Below, piece by piece: positions 40,029 to 54,742 of a stretch of 64,000 nucleotides of DNA. The DNA comes from a virus. Taxonomy: Duplodnaviria; Heunggongvirae; Uroviricota; Caudoviricetes. The stretch is from positions 1 through 64,000 of the IMG/VR virus record IMGVR_UViG_3300042905_002309; one strand, written 5' to 3'. The position numbers and the translations under genes were made by a program. The notes beneath the pieces were generated by a model that was given only the letters and a program-made list of their open reading frames with translations, had not been told where the DNA came from and ran no database searches. Each line of letters opens with the position of its first letter. Position 1 is the first letter of the stretch.

Positions 40029-40057
40029 AAAAAACCCCAAACCTTTCGGAATGGGGT
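40029..40057 (-). terminator. Intrinsic terminator ending tRNA array 1
   Basis: ACCCCA-TTCCGAAAGGTT-TGGGGT followed by T-run. Confidence 0.7.
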
Positions 40058-40085: not shown

Positions 40086-40159
40086 TGGTGCGGTATGGGA
40101 AATTCGAATTCCCAACAAAACATTGGCAATGTCTTATGTTACCATTACACTAATACCGC
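40086..40159 (-). tRNA. tRNA-Gly(GCC)
   Basis: Cloverleaf, TTCGAAT T-loop, encoded CCA. Confidence 0.9.
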
Positions 40160-41045
40160 ATAAAAGTTTCTTTATCTGTTCAAAATATTTTAAACCATAC
40201 TGTTCATTAAAATTACCATCTTTAGATACATCAATGGTTATTAATTGTATATTGTTTTTAAGACATAATTCAGATTTAATTTTGTCTTTTTTTATATTAT
40301 TAATTAATCGCTTCTCACCATATATTGGTTTATAATGGATGATGCCGTTAAATTCAATTCCTAATTTATAATCAGGAAAATATAAATCTAGTTCATATGG
40401 ATTTATTATTTTTCTACTATTAAAAAGACATTTGGGTTTTAATGTTGTTAATATTTTATCTTTCAAATATTTCTCTAATTTAGATGTTGACGCATGTTTT
40501 ATATGATGTTGTAAATTATATTTATTTCTGCATGTCATATTACAAAATTGATTTGTTGTTTCCTTTTTGTAAGATTTACGTGTAAATTCTTTATTACAAT
40601 AAGTACAAATTAGTTGTTTTTCGTATACTTTAGTTCGATATTTAGTTCGATATTTACTTGCACACGATTTACTACAACATATTGCATCCTTTTCTCCACT
40701 ATGAAATGATATTTTACATTGTGGACATATTTTATTTGGTAGTTTATTTGCATTAAATTTACCAGAACACGTATGATTACAAAAATGATTATTAGATTTA
40801 ATAAAATCTTTATAAATTAATATTATATCGCAGCCACATTGTTTACATTTAGTGGATATACGATTTTGTTTAAACTTTGCTCTACATGTATTTGAGCAAC
40901 AGTCTAATTTTCTCCCACCAGACAAACAAGATAACACTTCATTTTTTGGTTTATAATAAATGTTATTACATTGTTTACATTTAAGTGGTATAGGATCACG
41001 ACTCTTATAATTTTTTAATTCTTCTATTGTTATTTGTATGTTCAT
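40134..41045 (-). CDS. Zinc-finger-repeat, Vsr/PD-(D/E)XK-like putative homing endonuclease
   Basis: Repeated CxxC...FC/CCxxxC units; ELDLYFPDYKLGIEFNG..HY; CTAAATA promoter; stop codon lies inside tRNA-Gly. Confidence 0.75.
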   Translation of the reverse strand: MNIQITIEELKNYKSRDPIPLKCKQCNNIYYKPKNEVLSCLSGGRKLDCCSNTCRAKFKQNRISTKCKQCGCDIILIYKDFIKSNNHFCNHTCSGKFNANKLPNKICPQCKISFHSGEKDAICCSKSCASKYRTKYRTKVYEKQLICTYCNKEFTRKSYKKETTNQFCNMTCRNKYNLQHHIKHASTSKLEKYLKDKILTTLKPKCLFNSRKIINPYELDLYFPDYKLGIEFNGIIHYKPIYGEKRLINNIKKDKIKSELCLKNNIQLITIDVSKDGNFNEQYGLKYFEQIKKLLCGISVMVT

Positions 41046-41062
41046 ATAACTATTTAGTGAAA

Positions 41063-41141
41063 TGGAGCATCAGGCGGGTAACTCTCCCGCTTATATTATC
41101 CACATTGGAAGTGTGGTGCCTCAATTTTAGGCTACTGATGC
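41063..41141 (-). tRNA. tRNA-Gly(TCC), atypical D/T loops
   Basis: CCACA-CTTCCAA-TGTGG; T-loop AGAGTTA; CCA. Confidence 0.75.
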
Positions 41142-41147
41142 ATGAAT

Positions 41148-41224
41148 TGGAGCAGTAAGTCAGACTTCCACTGACTAAATGTGAGGTTGCAACTCACCGC
41201 TTCGTGTGTTTTAGCTTTTACTGC
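41148..41224 (-). tRNA. tRNA-Cys(GCA), atypical D/T loops
   Basis: GTGAG-TTGCAAC-CTCAC; T-loop TGGAAGT; TCCA. Confidence 0.75.
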
Positions 41225-41231
41225 ATAAATA

Positions 41232-41306
41232 TGGCGAGTCAAATCGGCTATGCTCCGATATCAAAAGCGCAATAAGCTTCCGTTTTAATGTTTAAACTAT
41301 TGACTC
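41232..41306 (-). tRNA. tRNA with ATT anticodon (Asn), atypical
   Basis: GAAGC-TTATTGC-GCTTT; G73 CCA; T-loop AGCATAG. Confidence 0.6.
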
Positions 41307-41312
41307 ATAAAA

Positions 41313-41398
41313 TGGCGGGGATGACGGGACTTAAACCCGCATTGCTTTTCAGCGTCACCGTGACAGGGTGATATGTCTATCAATTCCACCACATCCCC
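41313..41398 (-). tRNA. tRNA-Asp(GTC) with long variable arm
   Basis: TCACC-CTGTCAC-GGTGA; extra GC-TGAAAA-GC arm; GCCA. Confidence 0.85.
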
Positions 41399-41404
41399 AA
41401 AAAA

Positions 41405-41480
41405 TGGTACTCGATCACAGAATCGAACTGTGATTTTCTGCATGTAAAACAGAAGTACTAGGCCGTTGTACGAATCGAGC
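41405..41480 (-). tRNA. tRNA-Val(TAC)
   Basis: Cloverleaf, TCTGT-TTTACAT-GCAGA, ACCA. Confidence 0.9.
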
Positions 41481-41486
41481 ATTAAA

Positions 41487-41794
41487 TGGTCGAGAAAAGA
41501 CTCCGCTTTAAGAGGATTTCACTATTGTTCTGTTGGTTCTCCCTTCACTCACGGTGATGGAGCCAACATCTATCTCTCTTCTTAGTCTACCTGCACCTGA
41601 ACTGGTGCTGTTCCTTTAGCCAACTGGATTTCACTGTTGTTCTCTACGTGGAGCCATATATCCCGCTATAGTCGGGGTATGGACATGTATATGATCTATC
41701 AGTTGTGTTAACTATTTTCATGCAATTCTCTAGGGTTTAATCATTATGGAGAACTGCACTAAAATACGTTCAAAGCTAATTAAACTATCTCTCG
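41487..41794 (-). ncRNA. 308-nt structured RNA with tRNA-like acceptor stem, D-arm and CCA end
   Basis: CGAGAGA/TTTCTCG-ACCA; TA-GTTT..GAAC D-arm; long internal hairpins; two copies of an ATAGA/GAACA..GTGAAATC module. Confidence 0.6.
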
Positions 41795-41798
41795 AAAT

Positions 41799-41946
41799 TG
41801 GTAACGGATCAAATAATGGTCGTAAATTTCAGGCTTGTTATGATCGTGGTATAGCACTTTGTATTATTGATTCATCTAAACAAAAGTATGTAAAGGAATC
41901 TAATAGTATCAAATTTCTTGATATCATAACTAACATAATAAACGAA
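41799..41946 (+). pseudogene. C-terminal remnant of a 40134-like endonuclease joined to a tRNA 3'-end stub
   Basis: RKFQACYDRGIALCIIDSSKQKY..IKFLDII resembles IKSELCLKNNIQLITIDVSKDGN..LKYFEQI. Confidence 0.5.
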
Positions 41947-42022
41947 AGTAGCGGGTCAATGAGTCGAACATTGAATGTATAGGTTATGAGCCTCACCAGA
42001 AAACCCTTTCTAGCTACCCGCA
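41947..42022 (-). tRNA. tRNA-Met(CAT), initiator-like, degenerate, no encoded CCA
   Basis: GCGGGT/ACCCGC with 1:72 mismatch; AGG-CTCATAA-CCT. Confidence 0.65.
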
Positions 42023-42033
42023 AATTCTAAAAT

Positions 42034-42108
42034 TGGTGCCGATAGAGGGAATCGAACCCACGCAAATCTGCTTATGAAACAGACACTCAGCCATTGAGTG
42101 ATATCGGC
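42034..42108 (-). tRNA. tRNA with CAT anticodon (elongator Met or Ile2)
   Basis: TCTGT-TTCATAA-GCAGA; CCA. Confidence 0.85.
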
Positions 42109-42114
42109 GTAAAA

Positions 42115-42199
42115 TAATACCAAGTGTCCTGAACCTCTAGACGACTGATGAACTTTCATTCACCAAGATGGATTCGAACCATCGTTTCTCAGTTGATTA
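42115..42199 (-). ncRNA. Circularly permuted tRNA-like RNA (T-arm, closed acceptor stem, D-arm)
   Basis: GATGG-TTCGAAT-CCATC precedes TTGGTGA-loop-TCATCAG, then GTCTAGAGGTTCAGGAC. Confidence 0.7.
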
Positions 42200-42273
42200 A
42201 ACGCAAGTGGTCTACTATTAACCTACAATAGTTTGATCTATCGTTGGAAGTTGCATCCAAACTACTTGCTAAA

Positions 42274-42347
42274 TGGTGGGAACAGAGAATTTCGAAATCT
42301 CATTGCTAGGGTTTCACTCTAGAGTACTGCCTTTGTACGACATTCCC
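42274..42347 (-). tRNA. tRNA-Phe(GAA)
   Basis: Cloverleaf, CTAGA-GTGAAAC-CCTAG, ACCA. Confidence 0.8.
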
Positions 42348-42548
42348 AAAAATCTATAGGTATCGTGTCCTAAAACGCTTACATTTACATGACTTTAAGT
42401 GTCATAATCAACTATCGCTGAAAATCTTCGAAATTCCGCTATAGTTGATTTGGAAATTGGTGTAGTCTCTCCTTACTGCCACTATTGACATGATCAGTGT
42501 ACGGCTGGATGTCATTTCGGGTTAGTTACCGTATCCATTTCTGGAAAT

Positions 42549-42624
42549 TGGTGGAGCAGATGGGAGTTGAACCCACATTATGCCACATTGCAGGTGTGGT
42601 GCATGGCCTTTATGCTACTGCCCC
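42549..42624 (-). tRNA. tRNA-Ala(TGC)
   Basis: G3:U70 pair; CCACA-CCTGCAA-TGTGG. Confidence 0.9.
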
Positions 42625-42635
42625 ATAAAATATGT

Positions 42636-42700
42636 GCTGGATTTCACGAATGTTCCACCTACCACTCCACTGATCAGGTGGTTGTAAGGTGTCTATCAGC
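42636..42700 (-). ncRNA. Stand-alone copy of the ATAGA/GAACA..GTGAAATC RNA module
   Basis: GCTG-ATAGA-CACC...GGTG-GAACATTCGTGAAATC-CAGC. Confidence 0.55.
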
Positions 42701-42702
42701 GT

Positions 42703-42761
42703 AACAGACTAGTATGTTTTTTTCTTAATAATAGAATTTTTTTGTTTGCTGGAACTAGTCT
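42703..42761 (-). ncRNA. CAGCAAA-loop RNA family, copy a (minimal)
   Basis: AGACTAGT/ACTAGTCT stem, CAGCAAACAA after 5' strand, GTT tail. Confidence 0.55.
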
Positions 42762-42767
42762 AAATTG

Positions 42768-43067
42768 TTAAATGTCCGAAGCTTCTCTTGTGCGTCTATA
42801 ATCTTGGCTTCTTACATTGTTTTCTTCACTGGTTTGAAAATGGCTCGATACTGTTTCAACCTTCCATCCATTATCATCACCAATTCTTAAATACTTTCCT
42901 AAGATTGCATACTTTGCAGGTATGTAAGCTACTTGTGTAGCATTTTTCTTAGAGAGTGTGCATTGTTTGTAATCATTCTTCATGATTTGTCTTCTGATTG
43001 TTGTAGTGTCACTATCTTCATAGGGACTTCTTAAAACATTGTCAGGTGTACTTGGATAAACTTTCAT
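42768..43067 (-). CDS. Hypothetical protein inside tRNA array 1
   Basis: 99-aa ORF with purine-rich upstream sequence. Confidence 0.55.
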   Translation of the reverse strand: MKVYPSTPDNVLRSPYEDSDTTTIRRQIMKNDYKQCTLSKKNATQVAYIPAKYAILGKYLRIGDDNGWKVETVSSHFQTSEENNVRSQDYRRTREASDI

Positions 43068-43093
43068 AATTACTTTCTTTCTTTGTTAAAAAA

Positions 43094-43168
43094 TGGCACC
43101 CGATAGGGGTTTCGATCCCCTTTCTAGAGTTTGAAGGACTCCTATCCTAGCCAGTAGACGAATCGGGT
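43094..43168 (-). tRNA. tRNA-Glu(TTC)
   Basis: GGAGT-CCTTCAA-ACTCT; GCCA. Confidence 0.85.
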
Positions 43169-43177
43169 GTGTTAAAA

Positions 43178-43252
43178 TGGCACCTCATGAGGGTATCGAT
43201 CCCTCTCCTACAGATTGAGAATCTATCGACCTAGCCACTAGTCCAATGAGGT
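43178..43252 (-). tRNA. tRNA-Glu(CTC)
   Basis: ATAGA-TTCTCAA-TCTGT; GCCA. Confidence 0.85.
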
Positions 43253-43259
43253 ATTAAAG

Positions 43260-43348
43260 TGGTGCATCTGACAAGAGTTGAACTTGTATTTGCCTAACGG
43301 CCTTTTGGGTTCGTAGCCCAACGTGCTAATCCATTACACTACAGATGC
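43260..43348 (-). tRNA. tRNA-Arg(ACG) with long variable arm
   Basis: TTGGG-CTACGAA-CCCAA; extra GCC-GTTA-GGC arm. Confidence 0.85.
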
Positions 43349-43355
43349 ATAAAAA

Positions 43356-43431
43356 TGGTGCAGACACTAGGATTTTAACCTAGAACAAGAGGATAGGAAC
43401 CTCACATGATGTACACTTTCACCATGTCTGC
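43356..43431 (-). tRNA. tRNA-Arg(CCT)
   Basis: GAGG-TTCCTAT-CCTC; CCA. Confidence 0.85.
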
Positions 43432-43437
43432 ATGAAA

Positions 43438-43513
43438 TGGCGCAGATACCAAGATTCGAACTTGGAATTAAAGGGTAGAAACCTATCGTGATAGTCCGTT
43501 TCACTATACCTGC
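43438..43513 (-). tRNA. tRNA-Arg(TCT)
   Basis: AGG-TTTCTAC-CCT; GCCA. Confidence 0.85.
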
Positions 43514-43521
43514 ATTAAAAT

Positions 43522-43597
43522 TGGAGCCAACAGTGACAATCGAAGTCACAGCCTTCACATTACCAATGTGATGTTCCGCCACTTGAACTATGTTGGC
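43522..43597 (-). tRNA. tRNA-Thr(GGT)
   Basis: TCACA-TTGGTAA-TGTGA; TCCA. Confidence 0.9.
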
Positions 43598-43602
43598 AAA
43601 AA

Positions 43603-43679
43603 TGGTCGGTCTGGTGGAAGTCGAATCCACATTATACTGGTTAAGAGCCAGTTCTATATGCCTTTCTAGTCACAGACCG
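43603..43679 (-). tRNA. tRNA-Lys(CTT)
   Basis: ACTGG-CTCTTAA-CCAGT; ACCA. Confidence 0.85.
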
Positions 43680-43684
43680 ATAAA

Positions 43685-43759
43685 TGGTGCTCCTATTGGG
43701 TATCGAACCCACTTCCCAAGGGTAAAAGCCTCGTGTTAATCCACTACAACTCTAGGAGC
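43685..43759 (-). tRNA. tRNA-Lys(TTT)
   Basis: CGAGG-CTTTTAC-CCTTG; ACCA. Confidence 0.85.
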
Positions 43760-43769
43760 GTAAAAAAAT

Positions 43770-43849
43770 TGGTGCGCCGAGTGAGAATTGAACTCACCTC
43801 GATCAATGTATAAGATTGAGCTAAATGCTACCAGCTTAGTTTTCGGCGC
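43770..43849 (-). tRNA. tRNA-Ile(TAT)
   Basis: TCAAT-CTTATAC-ATTGA; ACCA. Confidence 0.8.
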
Positions 43850-43853
43850 AAAA

Positions 43854-43931
43854 TGGTCAGCTAGGTCAGACTTGAACTGACAATATTCCTGTATCCAAAA
43901 CAGGTCGCCTACCAATTGGCATCACTAGCTG
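43854..43931 (-). tRNA. tRNA-Pro(TGG)
   Basis: C1:G72; CCTGT-TTTGGAT-ACAGG. Confidence 0.85.
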
Positions 43932-43941
43932 ATTAAAATTA

Positions 43942-44046
43942 TTTGTGGTCTATCCCCACCGTCAAATCAATGCTGGTTCACTTTAATCCTGTTGACCAGT
44001 AAATTCACCTATCACATCAGGGTTCGTAGGTGAAGATGTATTGATT
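43942..44046 (-). ncRNA. Three-way-junction RNA with possible kissing loops and conserved 3' hairpin
   Basis: AATCAAT/ATTGATT, TTCACCTA/TAGGTGAA, CTGGT/ACCAG; loops contain CCTG and CAGG. Confidence 0.5.
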
Positions 44047-44050
44047 AAAT

Positions 44051-44127
44051 TGGTCGGAGTAACAGGGATCGAACCTGCATGACTTATGGGCCCAGGCCAT
44101 ACGCTTCGCCAATTAAGCTATACTCCG
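44051..44127 (-). tRNA. tRNA-Pro (loop CCTGGGC; TGG, possibly GGG register)
   Basis: CGGAGTA/TACTCCG-ACCA; TATGG/CCATA stem. Confidence 0.85.
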
Positions 44128-44133
44128 ATAAAA

Positions 44134-44210
44134 TGGTCGGCTATGGTGGTAACGATCCACCCTTCTCTGTGTATCAGACAGAAGTAATCAAACCTATATA
44201 CTAATAGCCG
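44134..44210 (-). tRNA. tRNA-Ile(GAT)
   Basis: TCTGT-CTGATAC-ACAGA; ACCA. Confidence 0.85.
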
Positions 44211-44216
44211 ATAAAA

Positions 44217-44309
44217 TGGTGGCAATAGTAGGAATCGAACCTACCGTGTTTACCCGAAGGGAACAGATTTACAGTCTGCTACGACACAACCAATAGTCGT
44301 CTTACTGCC
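44217..44309 (-). tRNA. tRNA-Tyr(GTA)
   Basis: GCAGA-CTGTAAA-TCTGT; long variable arm; ACCA. Confidence 0.9.
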
Positions 44310-44537
44310 ATAAAAGGTTTTACTATGAATTCCTAGAAGTTTCCTTCATTAAAAAAGTCATTGGGATTAGAACGCTTCCAATCAGCGGTTGAATTCTCGA
44401 CTCTAACTGTGATTCAACAGACCTTATCTATTGAATAACATTCAACTTCTCACCGAATGAGGTTGAACTTAATCAACCCCTCTTCTACGAGATTTACTAA
44501 GGTTCCCCAACGCATCAGGGAATCCTTTAAACAATCT

Positions 44538-44595
44538 ATATTCAGTTTTCAAATATCTTCACAACATCTTTTAGCGTTGTAGGCACTTTCGCACC
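44538..44595 (-). promoter_or_regulatory. boxB-like GAAA hairpin and boxA-like element in leader of array 1
   Basis: GGTGC-GAAA-GTGCC, then TTTGAAAACTGAATAT identical to 54541-54556. Confidence 0.6.
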
Positions 44596-44677
44596 ATTTA
44601 TTAACAGCCCCATCGTCGCTGTTAACCTTGGATACCGTTCTTGTATCCTAACCGTTATAATATCAAGTCTATAAACG

Positions 44678-44704
44678 AAAAAACCCACCGTTTTACTGGT
44701 GGGT
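44678..44704 (-). terminator. Conditional (attenuator) terminator of array 1
   Basis: ACCCACC-AGTAAAAC-GGTGGGT-TTTTT; 5' strand can alternatively pair with GTGGGTGT at the end of the leader ORF. Confidence 0.8.
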
Positions 44705-44725
44705 GTGTGATCCTAATGATCCTAT

Positions 44726-44830
44726 TTAACACCCACTACAACCTGCATCAAAGCGTTCTATCGCCTTGGGCATCGGTTTCACAGTTCCTCTATAAATTTC
44801 ACAAACTCTATTCATAACTTCTCTCTTCAT
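44726..44830 (-). CDS. Attenuator leader peptide of tRNA array 1 (MKREVMNRVCEIYRGTVKPMPKAIERFDAGCSGC)
   Basis: 34-codon ORF directly after TATAAATA; ends on the antiterminator strand; codons correspond to array-1 anticodons. Confidence 0.75.
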   Translation of the reverse strand: MKREVMNRVCEIYRGTVKPMPKAIERFDAGCSGC

Positions 44831-44869
44831 TAACTATTTATAACAATCATATCACTTTTCTACAGAAAA

Positions 44870-45004
44870 TCAAGAAATATTTTCAACTTTCTTTTTACAT
44901 ACGGAATTCACTGCATATCTTATACAATTTCCGCACACTCTTCTGCCCTTGTTCCTTAGTAATTTTCTCTTACATCTAGAACAATGTACGTATCTCGTCT
45001 TCAT
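44870..45004 (-). CDS. Small basic zinc-finger protein (44 aa)
   Basis: Manual translation MKTRYVHCSRCKRKLLRNKGRRVCGNCIRYAVNSVCKKKVENIS; TTGACT promoter upstream. Confidence 0.45.
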   Translation of the reverse strand: MKTRYVHCSRCKRKLLRNKGRRVCGNCIRYAVNSVCKKKVENIS

Positions 45005-45058
45005 TGTTAATAACTTATCATGACACTCACTGGAAGTCAATAGGTATTTTGAAAATTG

Positions 45059-52172: not shown

Positions 52173-52211
52173 AATACTGAATATTTGAAAAGTGTTTAGT
52201 TATTCGATCAT

Positions 52212-52350
52212 TGCTTTCTGAGATAGGATTCGAACCTACATTTTGTTTCCGCACCCAATGACAGGCGGCATGTGTTAATCCACACACAGCAGAGTTACCC
52301 GTAGTGTAAACGGGAGTTACCGCAGGGTAAGCCAGTTCCCCCACTCATTA
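52212..52350 (-). ncRNA. tRNA-like RNA with branched insertion in place of the anticodon loop
   Basis: D-arm GGG-AACTGGCTTA-CCC, T-arm GTAGG-TTCGAAT-CCTAT, GCGGTA/TGCCGC stem enclosing two hairpins. Confidence 0.55.
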
Positions 52351-52358
52351 ACTAAAAT

Positions 52359-52434
52359 TGGTGCGCCTAGAGGGACTTGAACCCCCAAAACTCAGCTTCT
52401 TAGACTGATATGTATGCCATTCCATCATAAGCGC
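52359..52434 (-). tRNA. tRNA-Leu(AAG), short variable loop
   Basis: TCAGT-CTAAGAA-GCTGA; ACCA. Confidence 0.85.
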
Positions 52435-52438
52435 ATAA

Positions 52439-52601
52439 AACGAATTCTAAAATAATATGGAGTCTGCACCACCACTAAGACCAAGTTAGTCTATTTTCGG
52501 TGTACTATTCGCAACCTTTTGTGAACCGTGTCGTCAATGTTCTTCAACATCCCGTAGTACGTTTCTTCCACGCTTAAATAACTTCGCTAACTATTTTAGA
52601 A
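52439..52601 (-). ncRNA. ~160-nt structured RNA between Leu tRNAs
   Basis: TTCTAAAATA/TATTTTAGAA closing stem, internal hairpins. Confidence 0.45.
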
Positions 52602-52603
52602 AT

Positions 52604-52679
52604 TGGTGCTAGTGGTGGGACTTGAACCCACAAACAACAGATTTTAAGTCTGCCCGATAAGCCGTTCTCGTACACTAGC
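52604..52679 (-). tRNA. tRNA-Leu(TAA), short variable loop
   Basis: GCAGA-CTTAAAA-TCTGT; ACCA. Confidence 0.85.
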
Positions 52680-52685
52680 GTAAAT

Positions 52686-52761
52686 TGGTGCATCTGGTGG
52701 GATTCGAACCCACAAAACCTAGATTCTAAGTCTAGTACATAAGCCGTTCTGTTACAGATGC
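52686..52761 (-). tRNA. tRNA-Leu(TAG), short variable loop
   Basis: CTAGA-CTTAGAA-TCTAG; ACCA. Confidence 0.85.
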
Positions 52762-52767
52762 GTTAAA

Positions 52768-52843
52768 TGGTGCAAGTGAAGGGATTCGAACCCTTAAACA
52801 ACAGTTTTTGAAACTGCCCGATAAGCCTTTCTCGTACACTTGC
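52768..52843 (-). tRNA. tRNA-Leu(CAA), short variable loop
   Basis: GCAGT-TTCAAAA-ACTGT; ACCA. Confidence 0.85.
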
Positions 52844-52850
52844 ATAAAAT

Positions 52851-52927
52851 TGGTTCCCCCATCATGATTCGAACATGATCTAAGATGGTCAAAGCATCTT
52901 GTGCATAAGCCATTACACTATAGGGGA
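52851..52927 (-). tRNA. tRNA-Gln(TTG)
   Basis: AGATG-CTTTGAC-CATCT; T1:A72. Confidence 0.85.
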
Positions 52928-52937
52928 ATGTTAAAAT

Positions 52938-53011
52938 TGGTTGTCCTACCTTGAATCGAACAAGGTTAAATAGATTCAGAGTCTACTGTACAGCCATTAT
53001 ACCATATGACA
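52938..53011 (-). tRNA. tRNA-Gln(CTG)
   Basis: GTAGA-CTCTGAA-TCTAT. Confidence 0.85.
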
Positions 53012-53019
53012 GATAAAAT

Positions 53020-53093
53020 TGGAGCCTGTTAAGGGAATTAAACCCTTACCCACTGATTACGAAACAGTGATACTATCGTTGTACTAAACAGGC
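53020..53093 (-). tRNA. tRNA-Thr(CGT)
   Basis: ACTG-TTTCGTAAT-CAGT; TCCA. Confidence 0.85.
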
Positions 53094-53101
53094 AATTAAA
53101 A

Positions 53102-53195
53102 TGGAGCCAACGGTGGGATTTGAACCCACATCATCACTTTTACATGACTTAACCCGATTACAAATCGGGGCCATAGCCGTTCTGGACACGTTGGC
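53102..53195 (-). tRNA. tRNA-Thr(TGT) with long variable arm
   Basis: CCCGA-TTTGTAA-TCGGG; ~23-nt variable region. Confidence 0.85.
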
Positions 53196-53202
53196 AAGTA
53201 AA

Positions 53203-53278
53203 TGGAGCACCCGACAGGCATCAAACCTGCAACCTTGTCCTTACAAAAGACTTGCTCTATCAATTGAGCTACAGGTGC
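53203..53278 (-). tRNA. tRNA-Thr(TGT), second copy
   Basis: GTCT-TTTGTAA-GGAC; TCCA. Confidence 0.8.
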
Positions 53279-53284
53279 GAAAAT

Positions 53285-53358
53285 TGGCAGGAACACAGGG
53301 ATTCGCACCCTGACCAAAAGTTTTGGAGACTATTGTGCAACTTTAACACTTTGTTCCT
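53285..53358 (-). tRNA. tRNA-Trp(CCA)
   Basis: AGT-CTCCAAA-ACT; AGG/CCT-GCCA. Confidence 0.85.
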
Positions 53359-53365
53359 ATAAAAT

Positions 53366-53459
53366 TGGAGGAAGGTGGGAGAATTGAACTCCCGCCACCT
53401 TTTAAGGGGTGGAACAATTTAGCAAATTGTCTCGACAAACCGACATTCGACTACCTTCC
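53366..53459 (-). tRNA. tRNA-Ser(GCT)
   Basis: ACAAT-TTGCTAA-ATTGT; long variable arm. Confidence 0.9.
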
Positions 53460-53464
53460 AAAAT

Positions 53465-53562
53465 TGGCTGACTCGGCTCGACTTGAACGAGCACACACAT
53501 CCCGTTAAGAATGTCATGGATGGTTTAACAGACCATTGCCTTACCATTAGGCCAACGAGTCA
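53465..53562 (-). tRNA. tRNA-Asn(GTT) with long variable arm
   Basis: ATGGT-CTGTTAA-ACCAT; ~27-nt variable region; GCCA. Confidence 0.85.
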
Positions 53563-53638
53563 AACTTAAATTGTTTCTTGATATCGTGTCAAGGACGCTT
53601 GATTTGCACAAGGGGTTACGTTTACCCAATATTCAAAA

Positions 53639-53725
53639 TGGCTCCAGAGGTAGGACTTGAACCTACACGCCCATTACAGGCATCAGATTAACAGTCTGAC
53701 ATGGCTACAATTACATCACTCTGGA
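53639..53725 (-). tRNA. tRNA-Asn(GTT) with long variable arm, second copy
   Basis: TCAGA-CTGTTAA-TCTGA; GCCTG-TAA-TGGGC arm; GCCA. Confidence 0.85.
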
Positions 53726-53732
53726 AACGAAA

Positions 53733-53829
53733 AACAAGTTGGCTTTCTACTTTTTATTTAGCGTCTAAAAATCGAAAAAGACTGATTATGGACTCTCGCC
53801 CACGTTTTATTGTTTGCTGTAACCAACTT
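53733..53829 (-). ncRNA. CAGCAAA-loop RNA family, copy b
   Basis: AAGTTGGT/GCCAACTT stem; ACAGCAAACAA; TTCGA; AAAAAGTAGAAA; GTT. Confidence 0.65.
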
Positions 53830-53836
53830 AAAATAA

Positions 53837-53947
53837 AACAGATTGTGTTTTCTACTTTTTAGAGAACGTCGAAACTCCCATCTTTTTGATTTATGTGATC
53901 GTCTGGTGGATCACTAACGTATTGTTGTTTTTTGCTGTACACAATCT
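53837..53947 (-). ncRNA. CAGCAAA-loop RNA family, copy c
   Basis: AGATTGTGT/ACACAATCT stem; ACAGCAAA; GTTTCGA; AAAAAGTAGAAA; GTT. Confidence 0.65.
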
Positions 53948-53951
53948 AAAA

Positions 53952-54029
53952 TGGCTAACCCTGCTGGACTCGCACCAGCAAAAATTGACTAACGTTAATT
54001 GTCAACTTTCGGCTACTAGCTAAAGGTTA
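53952..54029 (-). tRNA. Aberrant tRNA, anticodon undetermined
   Basis: Intact acceptor stem, T-arm and GCCA; reduced D-arm; 11-nt loop AATTAACGTTA. Confidence 0.55.
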
Positions 54030-54036
54030 ATGAAAA

Positions 54037-54133
54037 TGGAGGAAGCGGTGGGATTCCAACCCACGGAGGATAGTTTGAGCTACCCCCTTCCGTTTTCAAG
54101 ACGGACGCAATAAAGACGCTCTGCCACGCTTCC
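54037..54133 (-). tRNA. tRNA-Ser(TGA)
   Basis: TCCGT-CTTGAAA-ACGGA; long variable arm. Confidence 0.9.
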
Positions 54134-54141
54134 ATAAAATA

Positions 54142-54309
54142 AACAGGTTGATTTTCCTACTTTTTACACAGAAAATCGAAACTGTCACAAGTTTTACATC
54201 AGTAGATCACGATGTCAGGTTTTTATTTATGTGTCGCCTAGATAAAGACACTATGCCCGAAGGCATTTATTTACTATTTAGTTTATTGTTTGTTTGCTGC
54301 AATCAACCT
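54142..54309 (-). ncRNA. CAGCAAA-loop RNA family, copy d
   Basis: AGGTTGATT/AATCAACCT stem; GCAGCAAACAA; several hairpins; GTTTCGA; AAAAAGTAGGAAA; GTT. Confidence 0.65.
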
Positions 54310-54314
54310 AAAAT

Positions 54315-54390
54315 TGGGGCGATATACGAGACTTAAACTCGCTCTAAAACATTCACAGTGTTTCGTGCTAATCATTACACTAATATCGCC
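54315..54390 (-). tRNA. tRNA-His(GTG)
   Basis: G-1:C73; AAACA-CTGTGAA-TGTTT. Confidence 0.9.
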
Positions 54391-54589: not shown

Positions 54590-54617
54590 ACTTTATCACA
54601 ACTTCAAAAAATGTCAA
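54590..54617 (-). promoter_or_regulatory. Sigma70-like promoter for array 2, downstream of the attenuator
   Basis: TTGACA-N16-TAAAGT with extended TG. Confidence 0.6.
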
Positions 54618-54627
54618 CCCATAAAAC

Positions 54628-54660
54628 AAAAAACCCTAATCTTTTTTTAAGATCAGGGTT
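54628..54660 (-). terminator. Conditional (attenuator) terminator of array 2
   Basis: AACCCTGATCTT-loop-AAGATTAGGGTT-TTTT; 5' strand can alternatively pair with TAAGGTCAGG starting at the leader stop codon. Confidence 0.8.
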
Positions 54661-54685
54661 ATAGTTGACAATATAATACCTGACC

Positions 54686-54742
54686 TTATCTCTTATGTAA
54701 GAGATTAGACCATGTTGTACTATTTTGCAATGACGTTTTCAT
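54686..54742 (-). CDS. Attenuator leader peptide of tRNA array 2 (MKTSLQNSTTWSNLLHKR)
   Basis: 18-codon ORF after CTAAATA; stop codon begins the antiterminator strand; codons correspond to array-2 anticodons. Confidence 0.8.
   Translation of the reverse strand: MKTSLQNSTTWSNLLHKR

Follow-up and report, generated by a model that had tools for sequence, protein, structure and literature searches.

A probable leader-peptide attenuator preceding a tRNA array in an uncultured giant phage

The tRNA arrays of the phage

The window analyzed here is the whole 64-kb stretch presented above, i.e., positions 1 to 64,000 of a virus record of 248,016 bases (34% GC) that represents an uncultured giant phage. 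The genome encodes T4-type head, baseplate and replication proteins together with a late sigma factor (phrog_234), and the closest major capsid proteins of cultured phages show only about 35% identity to that of this phage. Also encoded are RtcB, an RNA ligase, Tpt1, a polynucleotide kinase, a CCA-adding enzyme and a Ro-like RNA-binding protein. The genes of this full tRNA repair and maturation set map to 66957-68369, the 193454-205315 region and 231257-232732 of the genome. Two tRNA arrays are located in the window, both on the minus strand, with the following associated features:

40030..40056, minus strand: terminator-like hairpin with a T run closing array 1 (read by eye)
40086..44309, minus strand: tRNA array 1 (ARAGORN and Rfam; fold for Cys)
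41148..41224, minus strand: divergent tRNA-Cys(GCA) candidate (cloverleaf fold only)
44526..44553, minus strand: boxA-like motif TTTGAAAACTGAATAT (rRNA-operon-like, sequence match)
52359..54389, minus strand: tRNA array 2 (ARAGORN and Rfam)

Array 1 consists of tRNA genes for Tyr, Ile (two), Pro (two), Lys (two), Thr (GGT), Arg (three), Glu (two), Ala, Phe, Met, Val, Asp, Asn (ATT), Cys (fold only) and Gly (two), that is, for 15 amino acids with Cys included. The tRNA-Phe(GAA) at 42347-42277 has an Rfam match of 36.8 bits and is also called by ARAGORN with relaxed settings, and the tRNA-Cys candidate (41224-41148) is called by neither program. Array 2 consists of tRNA genes for His, Ser (two), Asn (two), Trp, Thr (three, including TGT and CGT), Gln (two) and Leu (four); five amino acids (Leu, Gln, Trp, Ser and His) are served by this array alone. 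A Val-AAC candidate in array 2 (53952-54029), called by ARAGORN without an Rfam match, was left uncounted. Several elements of the arrays are unusual, namely the ATT anticodon of the array 1 tRNA-Asn, a tRNA-like element with a weak Rfam match of 24.9 bits (42161-42232, minus strand), a Met-like element whose anticodon stem is poor (about 41940-42020, minus strand) and an unassigned tRNA-like element that closes array 2 (52200-52340, minus strand).

The TTTGAAAACTGAATAT motif, which we take to be a boxA, continues into the 5' arm of a long-range stem whose other arm is at 40079-40065. Array 2 is likewise preceded by a boxA-like motif and framed by a stem formed by 54556-54534 and 52193-52177, so that, similarly to rRNA operons, each array is enclosed by a long-range stem (15-17 bp). 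In seven of the eight loci chosen for this comparison, the boxA-like motif precedes 23S rRNA. The motif and the stem resemble rRNA operon signals and would aid elongation and processing. A search of genome contigs with the boxA pattern for host inference hit 55 scattered taxa and gave no host signal.

Promoters and translation start of the leader

The sequence-only reading of this locus had placed a leader ORF within 44678..44842. This span includes a promoter and a terminator, and the ORF itself occupies 44726-44830, where the codon list given in that reading matches letter for letter. The ORF sits between promoters at 44873 and 44842 and the first gene of array 1, tRNA-Tyr at 44309.

45012..45040, minus strand: sigma70-type promoter TTGACT...TAAGTT (pattern scan; putative function)
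44870..45004, minus strand: 44-codon basic, Cys-rich ORF with two Cys pairs (ORF list)
44846..44873, minus strand: sigma70-type promoter TTGATT ... TG-A-TATGAT (pattern scan)
44835..44842, minus strand: T4-type late promoter TATAAATA (motif; late sigma gene phrog_234)
44726..44830, minus strand: leader ORF 1, 34 codons (ORF list, codon census)
44654..44665, minus strand: possible extended -10 element (TG-A-TATTAT) without a -35 element (read from the sequence; weak)

The sigma70-like promoter noticed just upstream of the leader is indeed present, starting at 44873; transcription from it is predicted to start near 44839, which gives a 5' UTR of 9 nt without a Shine-Dalgarno (SD) sequence, comparable in length to those of the other leaders of the clade (6-8 nt, inferred). 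The more distal promoter at 45012..45040 precedes the 44-codon ORF and could feed transcripts into leader 1. This ORF (45004-44870) lies directly upstream of the leader promoter and appears to be leaderless when transcribed from the 45040 promoter; its exact sequence is absent from the protein collection searched.

The first ATG of leader 1 follows TATAAATA by 4 nt, as had been read. With respect to the further claim that the late transcript would be essentially leaderless, late genes of the leaderless type in this genome use a spacing of 5 or 6 nt and never 4 nt: among the 160 late-promoter-like sites in the genome, 44 have the start of a long ORF within 40 nt, with the ATG located 5 nt after the motif in ten cases, 6 nt in two and 4 nt in none. 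In T4, the late promoter motif occupies positions -13 to -6, a geometry that the 5-nt class fits as leaderless. At a spacing of 4 nt, the late transcript may therefore start at the first AUG or slightly within it; this AUG fits better on the sigma70 transcript. The second in-frame AUG, at codon 6, is 19 nt downstream of the late promoter, and SD-led late genes have spacings of 15-25 nt. Neither AUG is preceded by AGGA, GGAG or GAGG, and the translation start of leader 1 is uncertain. Leaderless genes are frequent in this genome, with several ATGs found 6-7 nt after sigma70 -10 elements, and an SD-like motif precedes 106 of the 203 long ORFs.

The weak element at 44654..44665 could provide an uncontrolled baseline of array 1 transcription. 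Also, a consensus sigma70 promoter, conserved in the related phage G001, is located directly after the terminator that precedes array 2, at 54617. Given these promoters after the terminators, attenuators may control only part of the array output.

Amino acid composition of leader 1

Leader 1 uses all 15 amino acids of array 1 and one of the five that are served by array 2 alone. The count of 33 of 34 codons specifying array 1 amino acids holds when Phe and Cys are both counted, the Cys tRNA being the one recognized by its fold only. Codons 1-29 contain all 15 array 1 amino acids and no Leu, Gln, Trp, Ser or His, the lone Ser being located after codon 29; translation from the second ATG (codon 6, 44815) still includes all 15. 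Against a background of 61,825 codons from the 203 long ORFs of this genome, in which these five amino acids account for 20.6%, the probability of encountering at most one of them in 33 codons is 0.0047. Jointly with the presence of the other 14 amino acids of array 1, such a composition was found in 34 of 55,126 windows taken from real genes, in 380 of 1,000,000 independent draws and in 9 of 100,000 base shuffles that keep the frame open. When Cys is not counted, the P value is 0.12 for the full set of 33 codons, and 0.008 when codons 2-29 are considered.

The sequence-only reading went further and proposed that the ORF samples nearly every anticodon of array 1. Readable codons are indeed present for 19 of the 21 anticodon types, AGG and GAG being missing as stated, but with the peptide fixed 17.0 are expected (P = 0.14), so that anticodon sampling adds nothing significant beyond the amino acid composition. 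Similarly, the number of distinct codons given the peptide is not significant (P = 0.36), and a possible enrichment of rare codons was discarded (P = 0.11). Thus, the composition of leader 1 is above chance at the level of amino acids and not at the level of anticodons.

The leader 1 peptide matches no PHROGs family, and a phmmer search against 1.84e9 representatives retrieved only the peptide itself and a spurious repeat protein, a Cys-repeat protein of 1558 amino acids (P0002), which was rejected as a homolog.

A predicted RNA switch behind leader 1

Folding of the region downstream of and overlapping the end of the ORF predicts two mutually exclusive structures, along with a hairpin inside the ORF:

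44740..44778, minus strand: hairpin within the ORF, codons 18-31, -14.1 kcal/mol (fold)
44729..44736, minus strand: antiterminator 5' strand GTGGGTGT, codons 32-34 (fold)
44699..44706, minus strand: antiterminator 3' strand ACACCCAC (fold)
44673..44704, minus strand: intrinsic terminator with a T-rich tail, hairpin at 44704-44683 (sequence prediction)

The predicted terminator has a 7-bp stem and an 8-nt loop (-11.9 kcal/mol) and begins 21 nt past the stop codon. In the fold, GTGGGTGT pairs with ACACCCAC as previously noticed, engaging six of the seven bases of the 5' arm of the terminator; the pairing of GUGGGUGU in codons 32-34 with ACACCCAC has a predicted energy of -14.7 kcal/mol with the inner hairpin. 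Among the 14 terminator-like hairpins of the genome, the one behind leader 1 has the strongest alternative pairing. When the upstream 70 nt were shuffled 1000 times, this pairing was equalled 33 and 22 times, by two measures; of 2000 synonymous versions generated for the ORF tail, 156 keep it. The hairpin within the ORF is matched in strength by 2 of 3000 synonymous recodings and may be a polymerase pause signal.

Folding of the nascent RNA with a ribosome footprint, the check that had been suggested for this locus, predicts a dependence on ribosome position. With the modelled ribosome at codons 2-28, the probability of the antiterminator is 0.98-0.99; at codon 29, it is 0.99 or 0.71 depending on the footprint length, with codons 29-30 being footprint-dependent in general; and from codon 31 to the stop codon, it is 0.00. 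Because the ribosome blocks the antiterminator only from codon 30-31 on, the 15 amino acids of array 1 fall inside the sensing zone and the single Ser falls outside. In the full-length RNA, the terminator is favored at equilibrium (0.90-0.98 at every ribosome position), with a computed refolding barrier of about 6 kcal/mol, and therefore the switch must be kinetic, i.e., would depend on kinetic trapping of the antiterminator. As to whether the antiterminator would outlast the termination window, the energies to be set against this barrier are -14.7 versus -15.5 to -20.0 kcal/mol.

Without a ribosome, the nascent leader also folds into the antiterminator (P = 0.99). Folding detected no effective protector stem (1:2) of the four-segment trp/his design in leader 1; therefore, unlike in trp superattenuation, read-through is predicted for the untranslated RNA, and a general block of translation should open the switch as well. 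Accordingly, omission of Leu, Gln, Trp or His, proposed as a control, would be clean only at constant initiation in a defined system.

These predictions are also compatible with a temporal gate, in which early sigma70 transcripts, including the first AUG, would be translated and terminate, and late transcripts, starting one base inside this AUG, would escape translation and read through by default, with codon sensing being minor or vestigial. The folding of the untranslated nascent RNA into the antiterminator and the 4-nt spacing of the ATG, compared to 5 nt in ten leaderless late genes, are as expected of such a gate. Nevertheless, the AUG of codon 6 lies at an SD-led distance from the late promoter (19 nt, in a range of 15-25) and keeps all 15 amino acids, and the gate explains neither the composition of leader 1 nor the other leaders of the clade, where the AUG is 11-13 nt past the promoter. 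We consider this scenario the least probable of those discussed here.

A sister leader in front of array 2

Array 2 is preceded by an analogous set of elements:

54686..54742, minus strand: leader ORF 2, 18 codons (ORF, codon census)
54625..54685, minus strand: antiterminator and terminator of leader 2 (fold)

In leader 2, 14 of the 17 residues are array 2 amino acids, and all seven of these are present. Among 58,374 windows of real genes, 14 of 17 was reached in six and together with all seven amino acids in none. In addition, 11 of the 13 anticodon types of array 2 are covered (P = 0.023). Scoring each leader on both arrays gave z = +2.5 (array 1) and -3.1 (array 2) for leader 1, and z = +4.2 (array 2) and -3.3 (array 1) for leader 2. 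The amino acids of either array are under-represented in the leader of the other, which makes a mirror partition within one genome.

This partition bears on the possibility that the switch reports general translation status through ribosome position, the matched composition being real and conferring little amino acid specificity in the cell. Such a sensor agrees with the read-through predicted in the absence of any ribosome and with the lack of an anticodon-level signal in leader 1, but it would not need the mutual avoidance of amino acids (z = -3.1 and -3.3), and the anticodon coverage of leader 2 (11/13, P = 0.023) also argues against it; we find it unlikely.

Leaders in related phages

The tRNA regions of 15 related T4-like records were compared; in one of these (G016), the first array is at the contig edge, leaving 14 testable phages. 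A positional scan (a late promoter, an ATG within 4-15 nt, an ORF of 10-60 codons and a tRNA within 700 nt) returned 12 candidates, of which seven were kept: the two leaders of the window and those of G001, G002, G011, G013 and G015. The five dropped candidates lack a terminator behind the ORF, and G013 was retained although its hairpin has no T tail. Thus, a layout consisting of a late promoter, a spacer of 12-13 nt, an ORF of 18-22 codons, a hairpin and a tRNA array is found in 5 of the 14 related phages. In the other nine testable relatives, including G004, G007 and G008 with their large arrays, no such leader was detected.

The major capsid protein of G001 is 84% identical to that of the phage studied here, and its ortholog of leader 2 contains the same amino acids in a different order, with all three pairing strands changed. 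In the G015 leader, 14 of the 17 residues belong to the seven tRNA families of its own array, and all seven are present. Among the seven leaders that were modelled, the antiterminator is lost only with a ribosome in approximately the last five codons or at the stop in six, the outcome for L259 being unclear, and a clear protector stem was seen only in G001.

The match between leaders and arrays was assessed by permutation, with the arrays defined by ourselves (the Trp and Gln tRNAs of G001 by eye, the Asn tRNA of G013 assumed from the position of the Rfam match), the background of this genome used for all and three out-of-clade peptides seen before inclusion. With these settings, the true pairing was the best of 40,320 permutations for eight pairs, among the best 2 of 5,040 when the window leaders were removed from this set, and the best of 120 for the five clade pairs. 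Among ten leaders, some of which were picked by eye, three are not significant individually (G011, p = 0.41; G013, 0.13; L369b, 0.18) and G002 is borderline (0.045).

Outside the clade, the boxA motif, and no other handle, led to five near-identical metagenome loci of an unrelated element (L253, L259, L274, L284 and L302), in which a GTG-start leader rich in Arg, Asp, Trp and Met and a terminator precede an array of Arg, Met, Asp and Trp tRNAs. An ochre-suppressor-like tRNA (anticodon TTA) is present in four of these five loci. G034, likewise outside the clade, contains two candidate leaders. The orthologous leaders of G013 (L358) and G015 (L360) differ in that the former has a His codon, along with a tRNA-His after tRNA-Lys, and the sequenced stretch of the latter has neither; since the G015 contig ends nearby, this co-change is only a hint.

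Variants of leader 1 and RNA libraries

In the search for orthologs of leader 1, the boxA pattern in viral contigs (75 loci) and metagenome contigs (105 loci) identified a single clade relative, G001, whose contig ends within array 2. Five sequence handles yielded the boxA match and no other. In blastn searches against phage records, only tRNA-sized matches and no leader 1 ortholog were found; exact and degenerate leader 1 patterns gave no matches; nhmmer detected no leader 1 in the fetched loci; and with the clamp-loader, radical-SAM and methyltransferase genes as baits, no closer record with array 1 was identified.

At the protein level, the 90% identity cluster of the leader 1 peptide has three members. 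The other two (P0003 and P0004), for which protein sequences alone were at hand, are identical to it over residues 1-29 and end in GWRG and VGSGVRK; one variant is found on eight contigs and the other on one. The point at which the variants diverge is the boundary that the footprint model had already given, although the clustering of differences in the tail may be due in part to the 90% threshold, which favors late differences.

The runs containing this stretch are RNA libraries of freshwater metagenomes from one study. In all four runs (at most two samples), contigs bridge terminator 1 with no more than one differing base. This shows that terminator-spanning sequence is present in the libraries and carries no information on its strand, its level or whether it derives from RNA. 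Several protein-coding bins between the arrays are not covered in the four runs, and such holes prove nothing. A contig end at 44831, one base before the ATG, was considered as a transcription start site and dismissed, being observed in one of four contigs, with two of the others extending to 44860 and 45013.

These observations allow a more conventional explanation to be weighed, namely, an ordinary terminator of an upstream early transcript, with the ORF occurring by chance or encoding a small protein and the array transcribed from its own downstream promoter. The terminator is favored at equilibrium, a possible extended -10 element follows terminator 1 and a consensus promoter follows terminator 2, the antiterminator taken alone is modestly unusual (22-33 of 1000 shuffles), and the invariance of residues 1-29 among the three close variants is what a small protein would show. 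Against this stand the joint composition probabilities, which are 1e-4 to 6e-4 (leader 1) and about 1e-4 (leader 2), and the library contigs that bridge the terminator. For a small protein specifically, there is no protein family, the only remote homolog is spurious, and the orthologs of leader 2 keep the composition and the RNA switch rather than the order of the peptide. Overall, this explanation appears highly unlikely.

A model of tRNA-sensing attenuation

The leader ORF and the terminator behind it probably constitute a ribosome-mediated transcription attenuator that senses the tRNA supply for array 1, a reading made likely by the composition, the predicted folding, the register between the two, the sister leader and the related phages. 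Under the attenuation model, transcription would be carried out by the host RNA polymerase, with the ribosome assumed to move together with it. A ribosome that keeps pace would reach codons 30-34 or the stop codon and cover GUGGGUGU, and the terminator would form. If the ribosome were delayed at any of codons 2-29, or were absent, the GUGGGUGU strand would be free to pair with the 5' arm of the terminator as this arm emerges, and transcription would run into array 1. Leader 2 would have the same role for Leu, Gln, Thr, Trp, Ser, Asn and His. The census in leader 1, in which each amino acid is represented by one to four codons, would make an OR gate over 15 tRNA families.

The signal would be the loss of usable aminoacyl-tRNA, for example, through decay or cleavage of host tRNAs during infection. 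Loss of tRNA is preferred over amino acid shortage because additional tRNA would not cure a shortage, and is in line with the RNA repair and CCA-adding genes of the phage. A broader generalization, to which we assign about even chances, is that phages supply tRNAs on demand, each array being preceded by its own translated census leader, through which damage to any one of the listed host tRNAs would switch on precisely the array that includes its replacement, with a two-channel sensor in the present case. If so, the 20 amino acids are divided between the two leaders, which would act as a sensor of anti-phage tRNA destruction.

Relation to known systems

The pheST attenuator of E. coli is chromosomal, responds to a single amino acid and controls a synthetase. 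As in pheST, a leader peptide would here sense the supply of aminoacyl-tRNA and control a part of the translation apparatus. Attenuators of amino acid operons (trp, his, leu, thr, pheA, ilvGMEDA and ilvBN) in E. coli and Salmonella, as covered in the available part of PMC1183508, share with the present locus a short ORF with codons that match the supply provided by the downstream genes, mutually exclusive antiterminator and terminator structures, and a choice between these that depends on ribosome position. As described there, these attenuators control enzymes, in contrast to the phage tRNA genes here, and sample one to three amino acids in runs, compared to 15 sampled sparsely in leader 1; also unlike them, the antiterminator strand of leader 1 is within the last codons and the 5' UTR is short or absent. 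Given the missing protector stem, we classify the locus as attenuator-like rather than as a member of the four-segment trp design.

Attenuation by short ORFs in mycobacteria is reportedly linked to tRNA cleavage by VapC4. The polycysteine attenuators of mycobacteria, in the available portion of their description (bioRxiv 10.1101/834739), are leaderless short ORFs that serve as sensors, with stalling that alters RNA structure, as proposed here; unlike leader 1, they respond to one amino acid and act on translation initiation of protein genes, with no terminator switch before tRNA genes. In T-box riboswitches, as far as the descriptions available to us go, the choice between terminator and antiterminator is likewise tied to the state of tRNA, but uncharged tRNA is bound directly, without translation, and charging is sensed, whereas a translated leader would also register the loss of the tRNA itself. 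The Rfam T-box model gave no match here at the gathering score or at E values up to 1.

The presence of tRNA arrays in phages is a long-standing puzzle, for which codon compensation and replacement of destroyed host tRNAs are the main proposals (available sections of PMC10264068). In the latter capacity, phage tRNAs are a counter-defence that replaces depleted or cleaved host tRNAs (parts of PMC10264068, PMC11464382 and PMC11555353); the accessible text of these papers deals with tRNA function and includes no sensor that controls tRNA transcription. A literature search, with subscription papers mostly outside its reach, found no leader-peptide attenuation of tRNA genes. Attenuation, leaders, terminators and promoters are not mentioned in the available text of two recent papers on phage tRNAs (PMC13015707, PMC12482277), nor is a phage or tRNA gene mentioned in that of a broad survey of attenuators (PMC2965389). 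If the proposed mechanism is correct, a sensor that activates the arrays upon slow decoding of their own codons would provide the replacement view with direct evidence at the level of regulation. It would also broaden attenuation to include tRNA genes in addition to enzymes, with the number of amino acids sensed rising from between one and three to the 15 inputs of an OR gate, and would make the purpose of phage tRNA arrays testable with a cassette of 165 nt.

Other elements within the arrays

Apart from tRNAs, the arrays contain several additional elements. A gene for an HNH-type endonuclease with its own late promoter (40134-41045, minus strand) is inserted between the two tRNA-Gly genes of array 1. 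A repeated non-tRNA element is found between array 2 tRNAs (54196-54098 and 53949-53732, minus strand) and also in G001 (L122, 1196-1128). Finally, array 1 includes a structured RNA of about 310 nt (41484-41794, minus strand; z = -4.1) whose ends are paired and whose 3' terminus is ACCA; no match was detected for it in Rfam and no homolog among the fetched loci. Its contigs reach a depth of 32-80 in each of the four RNA-library runs, with the end connected to the start in one contig.
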